Position numbers and translations under genes: made by a program
The notes under the pieces: generated by a model
What the model was told of the DNA's origin: nothing
Database searches by the model: none
What the model saw: only the letters and a program-made list of their open reading frames with translations
Shown: in pieces, positions 55,321-61,449 of the stretch
Position numbering within the stretch: position 1 is the stretch's first letter
Layout: each line of letters starts with the position of its first letter
Origin: Candidatus Latescibacterota bacterium
GTDB taxonomy: Bacteria; Latescibacterota; UBA2968; UBA8231
Assembly (NCBI GenBank): GCA_965248265.1
Contig: CBDFJF010000002.1
Span: forward strand, 1,600,001-1,664,000
DNA: 64,000 nucleotides
Reading direction: 5' to 3'

Positions 55321-57444
55321 CTATTGCGACGCGTCGATAAGGGCAAGCGCCGCCTCAATGCTGATGATTGCCTCTCGATCCGCCTTCAACGCTTCTTCGA
55401 TCAGCCCTTGGACCTCTGCGCGATCCTCCGCCTTCCAGCCCTTTCTGCTTTTCGCCGTTACGCAGAGATCGTACAGTGGATTCAGCGACTCCAGCTCACG
55501 GTCATAATGCATCGCCGCCGACTCGAGTGGATCCGCTGCTTTGGGGAAGAGAGCGACGAGTTCCCGCATATACTCGGCGGCTACAAGACGTCGTCCTTTC
55601 AAGGTCTCCGCATGATGGCGGGAAATTTCCAGCGGAACATCCTCGGACTCGAACGCCTCACGCCAGAGTTCGTAGGCTGCAAAACCATACGGGATACTCG
55701 GCACTCCATTGTGTTTCATAAATTGCTCATCAGTGTATCTGATGCCCATCGCGAAACCGATCGCGTTCCGAAGAGCCGTCCGATGCATTTCCTTCTCGTC
55801 TGCTGCAGTAGGCTGGACATATACCCTTACGTTGAACCACTCGACAGGATCGGCATGTCCGATTGCGTCGTAGCGAACCGTGTAGGTGTCCGCTACATAC
55901 GGGTGACGCACGGTGTAGGTTTCCTCCGCCTCATTGTATCCGACGATCAAGCCCCAGCAGAACGCATGGTGCGCAGGGTGGTCGCTGGCTTTCTGTTCGA
56001 GGCTCATTGGCTGCCACACCAAGGCGGGGAAGCCCTGTTCCAGGCCCACCCGCACTGAGTCTCTGGCCTCTCGTTTCAACTCCGGAAGATTGACATCCGT
56101 ATCGTGTTTGTTGGCGTGGAATTCATGGAACTCTGCGAGCTGTGGGACGAAGTCCAGCGCCAGGCCCCAGTCGATGTTGTCGTGCATGACTCCTCCGCCA
56201 CCCTCTATCATTTCGAAGTGGAACGCGTGACCCATAAAGCCCTCCAACCGCGCCCTGGACCATTCTGGACGGCCGACGGCTTGCATCAAGGGGCTAAGGC
56301 ATAGGGGAAGAGTGTCGCCCCGGTTCGACGGCTTGACGTCTACCATAATGTTCATCGGTTCGTCTCCTTTCGGTCCGGCATCCGTGATGTTTGTCTCCGT
56401 TCCACCGACGACGACGGCGAGCACGAAGAAGCCCAAAACGCTCGCCAAACTCACTAAAGGAGGGCTCACTAATCGGTCCCTCCCATCTGCTACATCGGCG
56501 GCGAGCAACCGCTTGACGCGCGACAGCAGGGAGCCATCTGTCGCCGCAACTGCCAGAGCTGGACCTCTGAGTTCCTCGAGTGTGGCCAGCGCGAATGCGT
56601 ACGACTTTGGATCGCTGACACCAGCCGCGGCGTCATCGCAGCAGTGCTCTCGCTCGGTCCGAATACCGCGAGACACCCACCACACGGCCGGATGGAAAAA
56701 GAACGTCGTCTCGACGAGCCTTTGGAGCAGGTTGACCAGATTGTCGTAACGCCGGATGTGTGCCAGTTCGTGAACCAGGATCGCTTCGAGCTGATCAGGC
56801 GTCAGCCCCAGGAGTGAGCTTGTTGGAATTAGGACAACGGGTCGAAAGATACCGACGACCATCGGAATCTTTGCCATCGAGGAAGTGACCACCTCGACGC
56901 CGCGACGGAGGCCCTGTCGTTTTGCCAGGTTACGCACGCGAACACACCACACCTCTGGCAGGGGCTGTGTTCCAATCCGCCTCAGGGGGTAGGAGGCCCA
57001 GCAACCACCTAGCAGACGTAGCGACAAGAGCAAAACACCCACAGACCACCATAATACGATTTGCGGTATGTGGTCCTGCAGATTGACAGCCAAGCTCGCC
57101 GGCCAACTCTGATACACAGATGTCGGGCCGTCGTGTCGTTGGGCCGATTCCGTTAACGTTGCCGCAGCCGATGGGGTCGCCGCCATGACGAATGGGGATT
57201 CATTACGGGGACCCAGCAGAGTAGGCCCCGAAGGTCTCTCAGATTGGTGGACCCAAAAGGTGACCAGCGGCAGCACTACCATGACGAGCAAGGCGGCACA
57301 CGCAGTGGCGTAGCGCCATCGCGGGTTTCTCAGAAACATATTCGCGATCGCAAGGACGGCGGCCACTGCAATACCTTGCCAGACGAAATGCAGGAGCATC
57401 CACCCGATCGCCTGGATAGTATGTTCACTCAGAAAAACGCTCAT
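55321..57444 (-). CDS. BlaR1-type M56 metallopeptidase signal transducer with non-PBP C-terminal domain
   Basis: GW.LLHF.WQG, P.VVG..RP.VLIP, HELAH, FFHPAVWW, ERE.CCD; ATGA overlap with blaI-like gene. Confidence 0.9.
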   Translation of the reverse strand: MSVFLSEHTIQAIGWMLLHFVWQGIAVAAVLAIANMFLRNPRWRYATACAALLVMVVLPLVTFWVHQSERPSGPTLLGPRNESPFVMAATPSAAATLTESAQRHDGPTSVYQSWPASLAVNLQDHIPQIVLWWSVGVLLLSLRLLGGCWASYPLRRIGTQPLPEVWCVRVRNLAKRQGLRRGVEVVTSSMAKIPMVVGIFRPVVLIPTSSLLGLTPDQLEAILVHELAHIRRYDNLVNLLQRLVETTFFFHPAVWWVSRGIRTEREHCCDDAAAGVSDPKSYAFALATLEELRGPALAVAATDGSLLSRVKRLLAADVADGRDRLVSPPLVSLASVLGFFVLAVVVGGTETNITDAGPKGDEPMNIMVDVKPSNRGDTLPLCLSPLMQAVGRPEWSRARLEGFMGHAFHFEMIEGGGGVMHDNIDWGLALDFVPQLAEFHEFHANKHDTDVNLPELKREARDSVRVGLEQGFPALVWQPMSLEQKASDHPAHHAFCWGLIVGYNEAEETYTVRHPYVADTYTVRYDAIGHADPVEWFNVRVYVQPTAADEKEMHRTALRNAIGFAMGIRYTDEQFMKHNGVPSIPYGFAAYELWREAFESEDVPLEISRHHAETLKGRRLVAAEYMRELVALFPKAADPLESAAMHYDRELESLNPLYDLCVTAKSRKGWKAEDRAEVQGLIEEALKADREAIISIEAALALIDASQ

Positions 57445-57830
57445 TTGCGTCTCCTTTCCGCCTCTTCCAGCAGTTTCCGGATTTTCGCCAGTTCCTCGGC
57501 AGAAGCTGTCTTCGCGGACAGAGCTCCTGCCACCAACCCGGCTGCGGAGCCGTCAAACACCTTGTCGACGAGCGCCCCGACGAGAGACCGCTGGGTCTCC
57601 TCTCGATCGACAACAGCTTCGTAGATGTGGGCTTTCCGCGATTCGTCGCGCTGGACCAAGCCCTTGCCGGTCATCACCTGAAGTGTTTTCAGTGTGGTCG
57701 TGTAGCGGATGTCCCGGAGCTCAATCAGAGCGTCGTGGACATCGCGAACAGTGCAGGGTCCTCGATGCCACAGAACATTCAGCACATCGAGCTCTGCATC
57801 CGTCGCCTTGCGGCTGTCGTTGCGACCCAT
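57441..57830 (-). CDS. BlaI/MecI/CopY family transcriptional repressor
   Basis: T.AEL.VL.VLW.RGP.TVR.V, YTT.LK.LQ.M..KGLV.R, F.GS; GGAGG RBS. Confidence 0.93.
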   Translation of the reverse strand: MGRNDSRKATDAELDVLNVLWHRGPCTVRDVHDALIELRDIRYTTTLKTLQVMTGKGLVQRDESRKAHIYEAVVDREETQRSLVGALVDKVFDGSAAGLVAGALSAKTASAEELAKIRKLLEEAERRRK

Positions 57831-57869
57831 GCGGCCTCCTATCGGTAGTGTCTCGATTCGATGCCAGCC

Positions 57870-57914
57870 AATATACGACGATAATCGTACATGTCAACGA
57901 TAATTGTCGTATAT
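57870..57914 (-). promoter_or_regulatory. Repressor promoter with two tandem BlaI-type operators
   Basis: Minus strand TTGACA(57897-57892)-N16-TATATT(57875-57870); operators TACGA-N6-TCGTA (57874-57889) and AACGA-N6-TCGTA (57896-57911). Confidence 0.85.
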
Positions 57915-58047
57915 CGAATAGCGGTGTGCGATAGGTCTGAATGATCTCCTGCTCCCCACGAGTGCTTGTCAATGTTCATTGAGTGCCCTACGATCAAACA
58001 CGCATCGTATACCTGAAACCAGGGACCACCTGAAGGTTGAGAGAATT

Positions 58048-60288
58048 ATGATTCCGCTCCGTCGCGCTCTCGCGCTTCTGGTCGTTGTCGCCCCAAGTGT
58101 TCTCTATGCCGAACCGATGGAGTCCGGTGTCGAGCGGACAACATGGGCTCCGCTGGAGTCCACCGATTTTGTCCGCGGCTGGCTCTTGTGCGGCGTGTTT
58201 CCGAACCCGCCGGATGAAACTGGCAAGACGACAACCATCGGCATGGACACCGACTACTTGGCGGCTCATGGAGGAGAGGGCGTCATTCGTCCGGGCGATG
58301 GTATGGCCCACCTGCGGCCAGATGGCACTGAAGCTTCCTGGTTCGCGCACACCTCGCCCCAGGATTTCGTGAATTTCAGACTGGCATTCGAGGGACAGGC
58401 GAGCAGGAATGTCGTCGGATACGCCTATACGACGGTGAACATCGCCGCGGCGGGAAAGGCGGTCCTGTCCACGGGCAGCTCCGACGAGTTCCTGGTATGG
58501 TTGAATGGAGAGCTCATCCACCACCACCCCGGCCACGGCGTTTTCACGGATTCAGACCGAACCGAGATCAGCTTGTCGGAGGGAGAAAACCGGCTTCTCA
58601 TCAAAGTCAGGCAAGCCGCTCGCAATTGGGGATTTGTCATGCGACTCATCGGTGAGGCGGAAGCGAGCGAACTGACTGCCAGGGAGGTGGTACGAGAGCA
58701 GTTGGAGGAATTTCAGGACGCCGAGCTGCGCCCCAGGGGCAAATGGGATTTCATGTTCACCGTGGGAGACTTTCCCGAGATCGTCTGGACCGATCCTGCT
58801 CTGGTCAAATCGTCAGTGGGCGAGTTCTCATATGATGTTCGATGGTTCGACGCCGAGTTTCAGGAGGTGTCAAAAGCCGCAAACCCGGGTCGATACCACG
58901 CCTACATCACTGGCGAGCTCCCGTCTGGAATACCGTTTCGCAGGGCGCTGACTCTGTACTGCCGGCCACCCGAGTGGCGCCCGTGGCGCGACCAGATCAA
59001 GGCTAGTGTGGACTATCCGCCAAACAGCCCTATTGATGAAAAAGCATGGAAAGAGCGTCAAGAGATGATCGCCCTCCGAGTAGGATCTCAATTCGTCCAG
59101 TCACTGGCGACTGAGGAGGCTGGGGCGATCTTGATGGCCTATCTGGACGAGATGGAGCCTCTGGGGAGGGAGCCGCTCCCGTATGAGACTCCGGAAATTG
59201 CCGACGGGGAACACCATCTCCGCCTGAAACGGCGCCTGATGGACACGGAGGATCGATACCCGCCTCTACAACCGCCTCGAAAGACGGACAAGGAATCGAC
59301 TCTCATACGCACGGGAACGCCAGCGGAGGCCGGCGTCAAAGAAGACTCAGCTGACCGCATTCGGGCTATTTGCCAGCAGTGGTATGAGGAGAGTGGGGAA
59401 CCTTTCGTGACTCTTGTCGCCAGGCACGGCGTGATCGTGCTGCACGAATCCTTTGGGCCAGTAGCGCTCGATGCATCGCTCTACATGGCTTCGATTACCA
59501 AGGCGATCACGGCGATGATGTTCGCTCAGTTCCTCGATCAGGGCCTCATCGATCTGGACGACGCCATTGGTAAATACCTCATAGGCTTCCCTACTGAAGG
59601 GGACAAAATCGTCACTCTCAGGCATTGCTTTACTCACACCACCGGCCTGCGAGGGGGCGGTCGGTGGGGCAGCATCCGCAATCCATGGCTGGATAACGTT
59701 ATTCTCAACGGCCTCGACTACCTCGTGCCCGGGCAGCGGTATCAGTACACCGGTTTAGGCATCAACCTGGCTGGCAAGGTCATGGAAGCGGTCAGTGGTA
59801 GGAACATTTTGAGACTCATCCCGGAGAATTTTTTCCATCCCCTGGGACTGAGGAATACGACGATCAACAACCTCACAGGTTCATCCAGATGCTCGGCGGA
59901 AGACACAGCCAAACTCGCACAACTCCTGCTGAACAAGGGCACGTACGGTGGCAGGGTGTTCTTTTCACCTCAAACGTTTGAAAAATTGCTGCCGAGAGAA
60001 CTTGGCGAGTACTATCCGGACCTGTATTACCCGGAACTGGACCTCGAAGTGGGCATCGGCCTCACCTTCATGCGCGCCGATCATCCCACAGCCGGCGACG
60101 GCGACATCCGGAAAGACAGAACGTTACTGAGCAGAAACACCTTCGGACATGACGCGGCTTCGAAGGCCGTCTTCCGCATAGATCCGGACAACGAGATCGT
60201 CGTGGTCCAGGTCAGGAACACAGCCGGCCCCAAATACCGACAGTTTTTCCTCCGATTTCTACAGGAAATCGACGCCAGTATTCTTTGA
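58048..60288 (+). CDS. Secreted serine hydrolase, beta-lactamase (class C/esterase VIII-like) fold with N-terminal PA14-like domain
   Basis: Signal peptide; WLLCG.F, YAYT, D...VWLNG, G.NRLLIKV; catalytic SITK, THT.G, YTG, FGH. Confidence 0.85.
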   Translation: MIPLRRALALLVVVAPSVLYAEPMESGVERTTWAPLESTDFVRGWLLCGVFPNPPDETGKTTTIGMDTDYLAAHGGEGVIRPGDGMAHLRPDGTEASWFAHTSPQDFVNFRLAFEGQASRNVVGYAYTTVNIAAAGKAVLSTGSSDEFLVWLNGELIHHHPGHGVFTDSDRTEISLSEGENRLLIKVRQAARNWGFVMRLIGEAEASELTAREVVREQLEEFQDAELRPRGKWDFMFTVGDFPEIVWTDPALVKSSVGEFSYDVRWFDAEFQEVSKAANPGRYHAYITGELPSGIPFRRALTLYCRPPEWRPWRDQIKASVDYPPNSPIDEKAWKERQEMIALRVGSQFVQSLATEEAGAILMAYLDEMEPLGREPLPYETPEIADGEHHLRLKRRLMDTEDRYPPLQPPRKTDKESTLIRTGTPAEAGVKEDSADRIRAICQQWYEESGEPFVTLVARHGVIVLHESFGPVALDASLYMASITKAITAMMFAQFLDQGLIDLDDAIGKYLIGFPTEGDKIVTLRHCFTHTTGLRGGGRWGSIRNPWLDNVILNGLDYLVPGQRYQYTGLGINLAGKVMEAVSGRNILRLIPENFFHPLGLRNTTINNLTGSSRCSAEDTAKLAQLLLNKGTYGGRVFFSPQTFEKLLPRELGEYYPDLYYPELDLEVGIGLTFMRADHPTAGDGDIRKDRTLLSRNTFGHDAASKAVFRIDPDNEIVVVQVRNTAGPKYRQFFLRFLQEIDASIL

Positions 60289-60300
60289 TCGGCCATGTGA

Positions 60301-61449
60301 TCATATCCGCTTGCTGATTCCGTGTACGGGTATCGCTGAATTTGGCCGGAGCACTCCGATTGGAAGGCCGACAGAATACTCGCACGCCCGGTACAGTTTC
60401 AGGGCAGACTCGTTAGGGGCCGCAACGCGAGCCCGGATTTCCTTCACGCCGCGAGTGCTGAGCCAGGATTCGGCTTCTGCGAGTAAGCCTCTTGCAGCCC
60501 CTTGGCGGCGGTGAGCCGGTGAAACGAACAACCCCCAGAGGTAGCCGGAAGATGGATCCTCATCGGATATGCCGAATCCACACATCGCAATGGGTTCGCC
60601 TTCATGTTCGAAATACGCAATCGACTTGCTGTGTGCCGTGACAGCATCTGATAACCATTGGGTTAGTTCCGCATCAGAGCGTTCCGCAAAGGCTTCAGCA
60701 GTTTCACCAAAGGCATCAGGGTCATTCTGCAGAGCCTTCATCCGTATTCTGCGGAAACGATCGGTATCTTCAGCTGTGAAGTGTAGGACCATCGCCTTGC
60801 TCGTTACCTGTGGCTGGACGCTCGGTGACTCTCTTCCTCTCTTGCTTTGGGCGATCATCTGCTCCACGCGCTCCTTCCAAGGATGAGAGTACCATTTCTT
60901 GCGCCACTCCTCGCGGGTCGACTCCACGTCAGGGGGCGTTTGGCTCCCGTAGCTTAGGGCATCCAAGAAGGACATGATGTTGCTGAGTTTGCCCTCTATG
61001 ATGGAGCAGACTCCAGGACGACCACTCTCACCGTGATACCGATGGATAAGCGTGTCGATCAGGATGAGCCGCTCCCTGGGTGATCGAGCAGCGCTGAAAC
61101 GCCGTACGAACTCCTCGAGTTGTGACTTCATGCGGCCCGCGAACAAGTGTTTGTACTTGATGGTCTTCCGGTAAGCTTCCCAGGGGCATCGCCACTCACA
61201 CTCGGCGCACTCCAACCACTGCCGCTCGTGCTCGACGGTCGCTCCACAGGCCGCACAGGGGGCACGTCCGCTGACGGCGTCTGTGGCGGCCAGGATGCTC
61301 TCGGCCCTCGCAAGCAACGCGTAGCCCACCTCATTGATCAATTCCTCGTCGACGAGGCCTTTCCCGGAGCTTTCGTAGAACCTGGAGATCATCACCTTGC
61401 GGAGGCGCGGGGCCCAGGCCGGCAGTCCGTATTCAGTGTCGTTACTCAT
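60301..61449 (-). CDS. Zn-ribbon hypothetical domain fused to GNAT acetyltransferase
   Basis: CAAC...CAEC; C-terminal R..AL..DP.AFG, LFV.P.HRRQG.A, N..A..LY. Confidence 0.75.
   Translation of the reverse strand: MSNDTEYGLPAWAPRLRKVMISRFYESSGKGLVDEELINEVGYALLARAESILAATDAVSGRAPCAACGATVEHERQWLECAECEWRCPWEAYRKTIKYKHLFAGRMKSQLEEFVRRFSAARSPRERLILIDTLIHRYHGESGRPGVCSIIEGKLSNIMSFLDALSYGSQTPPDVESTREEWRKKWYSHPWKERVEQMIAQSKRGRESPSVQPQVTSKAMVLHFTAEDTDRFRRIRMKALQNDPDAFGETAEAFAERSDAELTQWLSDAVTAHSKSIAYFEHEGEPIAMCGFGISDEDPSSGYLWGLFVSPAHRRQGAARGLLAEAESWLSTRGVKEIRARVAAPNESALKLYRACEYSVGLPIGVLRPNSAIPVHGISKRI

Follow-up and report, generated by a model that had tools for sequence, protein, structure and literature searches.

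The window analysed here, a stretch of 64,000 nucleotides from a Candidatus Latescibacterota bacterium (contig CBDFJF010000002.1, positions 1,600,001 to 1,664,000), encodes a BlaI-like repressor, a membrane protein of the M56 protease family and a divergently transcribed serine hydrolase. We propose that the conserved functional unit at this locus is a two-gene cassette, made up of the repressor and M56 genes, that represses itself, and that the hydrolase is its most probable local output; we give this reading a probability of roughly 55%. The three genes had been recognized in an original prediction made from the sequence alone, and open reading frames (ORFs) and Pfam matches confirmed all of them: a BlaI-like repressor, an M56 gene coupled to it through ATGA and a divergent PF00144 hydrolase of 746 amino acids. 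Gene calls were based on six-frame ORFs and a Pfam profile search:

55321-57444, minus strand: M56 gene, 707 amino acids (PF05569, E 1.1e-26, 94 bits, residues 25-293)
55324-56322, minus strand: sensor-like domain of the M56 protein (residues 375-707), with a papain-like alpha/beta half and a helical half
57441-57830, minus strand: blaI-like repressor gene, 129 amino acids (PF03965, E 1e-26)
58048 (ATG) to 60288, plus strand: hydrolase gene, 746 amino acids (PF00144, E 5e-33)

The start of the M56 gene and the stop of blaI overlap in an ATGA (57441-57444) that can be read directly from the sequence, and the hydrolase gene diverges from this pair across a gap of 217 bp (57831-58047). The gene beyond M56 is convergent, and the blaI-M56 operon therefore has no third gene. 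The repressor passes the Pfam gathering score with 94 bits against 22.6 (PF03965, winged-helix Penicillinase_R, residues 10-123) and stays far under the cut-offs of the NCBIfam equivalogs (51 bits against 180 for BlaI_of_BCL, 28.5 against 250 for MecI and 51.6 against 122 for CopY_TcrY). Since the genome (7.32 Mb in 2 contigs) contains just two M56 genes and two PF03965 genes, the pair does not come from an expanded paralogous family. Judged from sequence, it is a genuine repressor-protease pair with its own candidate operator. The second BlaI-M56 pair of the genome is located at G000:C1:957556-959834 (L235:6556-8834, plus strand). Its repressor is 55% identical, its M56 protein has 627 amino acids of which the C-terminal ~340 match neither the sensor domain nor a Pfam family (E <= 1e-5), and it is followed by an AICARFT/IMPCHase-like gene.

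An inverted repeat lies in the gap between the divergent genes. Its 18-nt arms (57871-57888 and 57897-57914) are 89% complementary, and both are dyads in their own right, of the form TACGA-N6-TCGT[A/T]. Four elements were annotated in this control region:

57871-57914, no strand assigned: double dyad of 44 bp with two TACGA-N6-TCGT[A/T] sites, putative BlaI operator
57870-57897, minus strand: sigma-70-like promoter of blaI-M56, TTGACA-16-TATATT, matching 11 of 12 consensus positions
57966-57994, plus strand: promoter-like site upstream of the hydrolase, TTGTCA-17-TACGAT, weaker (9 of 12 matches) and proposed on the consensus alone
57989-58009, no strand assigned: third dyad, TACGAT-N9-ATCGTA, over the predicted -10/+1 of the hydrolase and 39 bp before its ATG

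The blaI-M56 promoter is embedded in the operator, with the dyads covering both -35 and -10. Two copies of the 15-nt operator unit are present in the window, where 0.20 would be expected, and across the 7.32-Mb genome the unit is confined to this site. The half-site TACGA/TCGTA is found five times in the 217-bp gap compared with 1.5 times per kb genome-wide. Looser dyads elsewhere (C2:242899, C2:3415698 and C2:1273722) are located within or next to coding frames and seem to be chance occurrences. The block TACGAC-nnTTATCGTTGACA-nGTACGA-n6-TCGTATA is invariant in four genomes (the window genome, G079, G107 and G019) between flanks that have diverged, and TTGACA and TATA[T/A]T are kept in the latter three, ahead of orthologous repressor genes. 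We take this block as the phylogenetic footprint of a promoter that is probably autoregulated. The third dyad, which was noticed post hoc, has the same half-site as the operator at another spacing, and there are two such sites genome-wide.

Orthologues of the repressor, with 74-85% identity, were found in four other genomes of the phylum, and a further BlaI protein, P0293, is 96% identical. In G019, blaI and an M56 gene with two sensor copies are divergent from a sulfatase gene, the longest-ORF start of which lies ~48 bp from the operator. G107 encodes blaI, M56 and several tandem sensor copies between aldo-keto reductase fragments, with transposases and insertion sequence (IS) elements nearby. 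In G079, the M56-sensor gene is split by an HTH_Tnp_1 transposase and an rve integrase (L228:7287-8506, plus strand), the repressor and operator are intact, and the divergent gene, past an AT-rich gap, encodes an HTH_17 protein. G005 has a truncated remnant of the repressor alone. Six further metagenomic BlaI orthologues are apparently on the same contig as an M56-sensor protein, according to a weak method that matches longest contigs; the same matching gave no credible pairing of a BlaI orthologue with a hydrolase relative. One contig coincidence between the hydrolase and BlaI lists (2092 bp) was rejected, as it joined different sources and was too short for both genes. Around the window locus, the GC content was unremarkable and no island boundary emerged from microsynteny around a conserved epimerase, as the five relatives compared have the epimerase alone in common.

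Several observations weigh against the hydrolase being part of this system. Firstly, a phmmer search with the BlaI and M56 proteins of the window found neither in 83 other hydrolase loci, and profile hidden Markov models (14 BlaI sequences, 13 M56 N-terminal domains) found neither at E <= 0.01 in 162 loci of hydrolase relatives. Of these loci, 86 hold true family members with middle and catalytic domains, and at least 2.5 kb of flank was available on both sides in 60, on one side in 20 and on neither side in 6. Secondly, a search for hydrolase relatives up to ~8 kb from the sensor gene was negative at 22 other sensor loci, and it was also negative near the second BlaI-M56 pair and at the orthologous blaI loci of G079 and G005. 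The hydrolase family is present in 2 of 40 relatives from the same taxonomic family, as distant partial matches alone. Thirdly, the operator lies 134 bp from the ATG of the hydrolase and ~52 bp upstream of its predicted -35, and need therefore not occlude the hydrolase promoter; its distance to blaI is 41 bp. Lastly, the TACGA/TCGTA cores of the third dyad, found after the fact, are separated by N11 and those of the operator dyads by N6, so one dimer geometry cannot suit both spacings. With linkage in relatives negative from the hydrolase side as well as from the regulator side, the earlier description of the locus as a complete three-gene switch does not hold for a conserved unit. The triplet is not conserved, and we read the conserved unit as operator-promoter, blaI and M56-sensor gene.

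These results could imply that the hydrolase is an unrelated neighbour, next to which a portable BlaI-M56 module was inserted by chance and regulates itself or distant genes via degenerate sites. We regard this as a serious possibility, if somewhat short of even odds. The triplet is absent from every other locus examined, the neighbours of the cassette vary (a sulfatase, aldo-keto reductase fragments with transposases, an HTH_17 gene, a remnant), IS elements surround the cassette in G107 and disrupt its M56 gene in G079, and the operator is nearer to blaI than to the hydrolase. On the other hand, a sensor-repressor pair without any output beyond itself is hard to rationalize. The hydrolase is the most probable output because the operon contains no further gene (the next gene being convergent), because the genome has no other site with the exact operator unit, because the two transcription units share a control region in which a rare dyad with the same half-site falls on the predicted -10 of the hydrolase, and because the cassette of G019 also faces a gene for a hydrolytic enzyme. 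The operator and the rare dyad also argue against a chance neighbour, as does the finding that the divergent gene is hydrolytic in two of the three cassettes with an intact M56 gene (PF00144 here, sulfatase in G019). On these cis-element arguments, co-regulation of cassette and hydrolase in this genome is plausible.

The mechanism that we infer for a cassette with the hydrolase as output comprises repressor binding, a proteolytic relay, regulation of the hydrolase, a ligand and a substrate. A dimeric repressor of the BlaI type would bind the two adjacent dyads, which overlie the -35 and -10 elements upstream of its own gene. The M56 protease, made from the same mRNA, would cross the membrane four times and display a sensor that does not bind penicillin on the outside. 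An external ligand would activate the cytoplasmic zinc site, upon which the repressor would be cleaved and transcription would rise, by analogy with BlaR1. In this genome the cassette would have landed back to back with the gene for a secreted hydrolase with PA14-like, middle and family VIII esterase-like domains, its probable output.

The M56 protein contains the zinc-protease signature HELAH at 225-229 with an Asp at +5 (D234) and hydrophobic segments on either side. Its hydrophobic segments (16-34, 47-65, 126-144, 193-211 and 330-348) form a BlaR1-like set, and by analogy with the topology of BlaR1 residues ~350-707 would be outside the cytoplasm. In this C-terminal part, no Pfam match to a penicillin-binding or class D beta-lactamase-like sensor was found. 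The NCBIfam model blaR1_generic scored 69 bits against a cut-off of 400 and matched over positions 5-257 of 585, the N-terminal half alone. The M56 protein ends in a domain that is not of the penicillin-binding kind.

The locus resembles BlaI-BlaR1-BlaZ and MecI-MecR1 of S. aureus in its co-transcribed winged-helix repressor and M56 protease and in the palindromic operator over the promoter. As in S. aureus bla, the gene of an exported enzyme of the PF00144 superfamily type is divergent, and the proteolytic relay is presumed to be the same. The prediction that the locus mirrors the blaZ/blaR1-blaI layout is thus correct for the gene arrangement in this genome, but the arrangement is not conserved in relatives. 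Unlike the bla and mec systems, this one has no penicillin-binding sensor and its proteins are far under the cut-offs of the NCBIfam models BlaR1, MecR1, BlaI and MecI. The operator half-site in staphylococci is TACA/TGTA, compared with TACGA here, and the enzyme is a three-domain protein of 746 amino acids that is nearest to esterases. The locus could be read as a classical beta-lactam operon of the blaZ/blaR1/blaI type, which would sense beta-lactams and induce a beta-lactamase, as its gene order is like that of the S. aureus bla locus and all three proteins have bla-related Pfam names. This is highly improbable, since there is neither PF00905 nor a class D-like sensor, blaR1_generic is matched weakly and in one half, the sensor folds like CtaG and CcbD, the hydrolase reaches 15.2 bits against a cut-off of 415 for NCBIfam bla_class_C, and the structures nearest to the enzyme are esterases and acyltransferases. 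The proposal that the ligand is other than a classic beta-lactam is therefore supported: with an M56 protein that lacks a penicillin-binding domain, a beta-lactam is very unlikely.

Another parallel is offered by the atypical BlaIR pairs without a sensor, BlaI-BlaR of M. tuberculosis and M. abscessus and PvmSR of P. aeruginosa, as described in the PvmSR preprint (10.64898/2026.08.03.742534). In the preprint HEXXH with an Asp at +5 is cited as the M56 signature, and the window pair shares with these systems this signature, a partner of the BlaI family and the absence of a tie to beta-lactam sensing. Unlike these pairs, which are described there as lacking an extracytoplasmic sensor, the M56 protein of the window carries a folded one of 333 amino acids and of different origin.

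Apart from noise, the sensor domain gave no Pfam match at E <= 1, PF14399 and PF16169 included, and PDB sequences yielded nothing when searched with a profile built from its family. An AlphaFold2 model, based on an alignment of 21 relatives, had a predicted local distance difference test score (pLDDT) of 94.9 and a predicted template modelling score (pTM) of 0.91, and consists of an alpha/beta half followed by a helical half. With Foldseek, this model gave significant matches to AziU3/U2, CcbD and CtaG alone (E 2.8e-6 to 7e-4, template modelling scores ~0.5-0.56). An independent all-against-representatives structural alignment of residues 1-330 with these CtaG-like ligases gave Z-scores of 16.9 (288 residues aligned, root-mean-square deviation 5.8), 15.8 (268 residues, 4.3) and 15.1 (283 residues, 4.6), and the remaining structural matches, with Z <= 11.7, covered the helical half alone. 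Neighbours of the sensor in the ESM Atlas (scores 0.89-0.91) carry BtrH_N, DUF4872 or Peptidase_C39_2 domains. According to PMC12865890, together with PDB entries 9QVJ, 7YN1 and 7WUW, CtaG, CcbD, AziU3/U2 and BtrH are papain-like, carrier-protein-dependent enzymes that form amides, and BtrH and AsbE are named there as structural homologues. The predicted model indicates that the sensor domain folds like the papain-like ligases CtaG, CcbD and AziU3/U2, with which it has the bipartite papain-like and helical architecture in common. Unlike CtaG, CcbD, AziU3/U2 and BtrH, it has no sequence match to PF14399, PF16169 or a PDB chain. It is also predicted to be extracytoplasmic and tethered to the membrane, and it is fused to signalling proteins, unlike CtaG-class enzymes in biosynthetic clusters.

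The likely fate of the catalytic residues was derived from an hhalign comparison of the sensor profile with a BtrH_N alignment from the same phylum. The match is weak (22% probability, E ~1e-3, 184 columns), collinear with the fold and has a G-Y-D/N motif in common; that the mapping of the catalytic residues hangs on it also counts against our interpretation. In this tentative alignment, domain position 4, located at the start of helix 4-15 and occupied by Thr or Ser in 18 of the 21 sequences, corresponds to the invariant Cys of BtrH_N. Position 122 (Cys in 11 of 21, never His) falls on the probable catalytic His, and His140, invariant in the sensor, falls on the invariant Asp. The aligned positions are spaced by 118 and 18 residues in the sensor, in keeping with 117 and 16 in CtaG. 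Because these positions are Thr/Ser, variable and His, the Cys-His-Asp triad of the CtaG class is probably lost, and the sensor would tentatively bind its ligand without turnover. That the domain is instead an active periplasmic enzyme, a peptidase or acyltransferase, and not a sensor, seems quite unlikely to us. It has its fold in common with ligases that are active according to PMC12865890, and the copy in the window has Cys at domain positions 8 and 122 as well as the invariant His140. Against catalysis speak the Thr/Ser where the catalytic Cys aligns, the variable column at the catalytic His and the His in the column of the Asp, as well as the repeated fusion of the domain to signalling outputs.

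Relatives of the sensor domain are numerous: 28 were found in a word-indexed search, and a HMMER search of 1.84 billion representatives gave 1111 matches at E <= 0.001, 386 at <= 1e-10 and 104 at <= 1e-30. Most are ~330-460 amino acids long, and an N-terminal hydrophobic anchor was seen in P0125 and P0127. Among the 150 best representatives, 38 had at least 450 amino acids, and 24 of these, picked by length, were scanned for domains. The scan gave 15 sigma-70/extracytoplasmic function (ECF) sigma factors, four M56 proteins, two DUF362 proteins, one ABC fragment and two proteins with nothing further; four more M56 fusions are among the 28 relatives from the word search. P0135 has a hydrophobic segment at 240-258, after its sigma domain and before the sensor. 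These relatives are like the ECF sigma factors with C-terminal extensions in the main text of PMC7826278, as they are such extensions behind a hydrophobic segment. Since it is recurrently fused to two different transmembrane signalling chassis, M56 and ECF sigma, we call the domain a sensor, and it looks like a reusable extracytoplasmic one. Outside subscription journals, no description of an M56 or ECF protein with a CtaG/BtrH-like sensor was found, and the words 'papain' and 'peptidase' are absent from the main text of the ECF re-classification paper PMC7826278 (its supplements lay outside the scope). Within this scope, the outward-facing sensor of the M56 protein is previously undescribed.

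The sensor domain is present in 39 of 168 genomes of the phylum, the window genome counted, mostly as a stand-alone protein. Genes for sigma factors adjoin the sensor gene in L197 and L199, and in L212 the two are fused. The window genome has four sensor-domain matches at three loci and no match to PF14399. One locus (G000:C1:833445-835601; L236:5371-7791, minus strand) contains a tandem sensor-like pair in a single ORF of 806 amino acids with an adjoining GNAT acetyltransferase gene. Another (G000:C2:1974629-1975642; L237:5384-6652, plus strand) has a single copy between two phosphotransferase genes of the APH family and a GDSL lipase gene. The nearest ORFs include APH, GNAT or Antibiotic_NAT (AAC(3)-like) genes at 7 of 14 stand-alone loci (L195, L196, L201, L207, L208, L236 and L237). 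An association of the sensor with AAC(3) acetyltransferases was considered and found to be weak, as PF02522 occurs in 147 of the 168 genomes and the sensor-adjacent cases among the 150 matches listed (of which there are 357 more) all belong to one genus, g22. The recurrence of these neighbours may be bound to a lineage or due to chance. In G009, an ORF of 1882 amino acids (L213:8049-13694, minus strand) combines a stretch similar to the PA14-like part of the hydrolase (E 5.7e-7) with a C-terminal, partial sensor-like domain (E 3.4e-9).

One could speculate that the domain is a pseudo-enzyme from the carrier-protein-dependent papain-like ligases (CtaG/BtrH/CcbD class) that was recruited as an extracytoplasmic receptor on M56 and ECF chassis. 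It would report a small molecule bearing an amine or acyl group, such as an aminoglycoside-like compound, an amino sugar or a polyamine, and would here switch on a secreted glycan-binding hydrolase that degrades or processes the signal. Taken as a whole, we consider this scenario rather doubtful.

The putative output of the cassette, the hydrolase, has ATG 58048 as its likely start because a public protein of 746 amino acids (P0001) is identical and relatives align from that Met. Its N-terminus, MIPLRR followed by a hydrophobic stretch, is probably a signal peptide. The full-length model (pLDDT 89.5, pTM 0.86) and the profile matches delimit three domains:

~58165-58662, plus strand: PA14-like beta domain (model, residues ~44-201)
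~58720-59307, plus strand: middle domain without Pfam family (residues ~225-420)
~59350-60285, plus strand: PF00144 catalytic domain

Where the original prediction placed an N-terminal PA14-like beta-sandwich, the model has a beta-rich domain at ~44-201. PF07691 (PA14) is matched by 10 of 28 aligned relatives (best E 6.4e-8), but at E <= 0.1 the hydrolase of the window gave no match of its own. The middle domain, of ~200 amino acids, has the invariant residues P243, W247, W266 and G281, and yielded no Pfam match and no usable neighbour in the ESM Atlas. The catalytic domain scores 115 bits against a cut-off of 27 for PF00144. Fold searches with the whole model were saturated by this domain, which is closest to family VIII carboxylesterases, EstG, a macrolactin acyltransferase and the uncharacterized structure 5TGF (Z 27-30), with R61 DD-peptidase at Z 23.5.

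In the PF00144 family, the canonical second motif is Y-x-N and the canonical third motif K/H-T/x-G. The hydrolase contains S482-I-T-K485, Y567-T-G and H701-D-A, so that its second and third motifs (Y-x-G and H-D-A) depart from the canonical ones. S482, K485 and Y567 are invariant in the 28 aligned sequences, and the second motif is Y-x-G throughout these sequences with a T in the middle here; it is Y-G-G in 5TGF. At the third motif, H701 is at least 90% conserved and most relatives have G-H-G-S/A, with H-D-A in this protein and its 85% identical relative P0002 alone. The non-canonical YTG and HDA motifs noted earlier are thus present, but they are not atypical for the family, save the Asp. Y-x-G and H-G-S/A run through the family, and the Asp alone is lineage-specific. 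The hydrolase retains the Ser/Lys/Tyr core and, according to the model, is nearest to family VIII esterases and EstG, not to class C beta-lactamases. It has the catalytic fold, the S-x-x-K and the Tyr in common with family VIII carboxylesterases, EstG, EstB, the macrolactin acyltransferase and 5TGF. Unlike family VIII esterases and EstG, it adds the PA14-like and middle domains, and its third motif is H-D-A (H-G-S/A in its own family).

Among 8000 candidates scored, 192 hydrolase relatives were found at E <= 0.001, mostly from sources with Planctomycetes-type names; P0002-P0013 are 55-85% identical to the hydrolase. A metagenome scan for nearer relatives gave 79 loci, 6 of which had at least 33% identity. 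Family members are either long (~750 amino acids) or short (~580, without the N-terminal beta domain), and the middle domain is present in both forms. At 22 long-form loci, the nearest large ORFs (n=43) include those for glycoside hydrolases (GH32, GH31, GH2 and two of GH5), an FGGY kinase, a LacI regulator and an FGE-sulfatase. Taken as raw occurrences, these neighbours are softly suggestive of a use of the hydrolase family on glycans. The enzyme may act on a glycan-borne ester or amide. EstG of Caulobacter has esterase activity and likely acts on cyclic glucan and not on the cell wall, according to the abstract of 10.1101/2022.04.12.488081.

At 60301-61449 (minus strand), the window encodes a protein of 382 amino acids with a Cys-rich N-terminal half without Pfam match and a C-terminal GNAT domain. 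A paralogue with 50% identity to the N-terminal half is encoded at G000:C1:759959-760579. In full length, the protein turned up in just 2 of 76 genomes from the taxonomic family, one of them the window genome.

BlaI/BlaR1 is the textbook example of a receptor built from an enzyme that recognizes the signal. Here, the same protease chassis would bear a receptor derived from a quite different enzyme fold, one that is also used by ECF sigma factors. As the sensor is a defined, foldable domain of 333 amino acids, its ligand could be sought directly, and the two-gene cassette with its mapped candidate operator could serve as a reporter. The odd motifs of the hydrolase mark a whole family of PA14-bearing enzymes, often encoded beside glycoside hydrolase genes, and not one protein.

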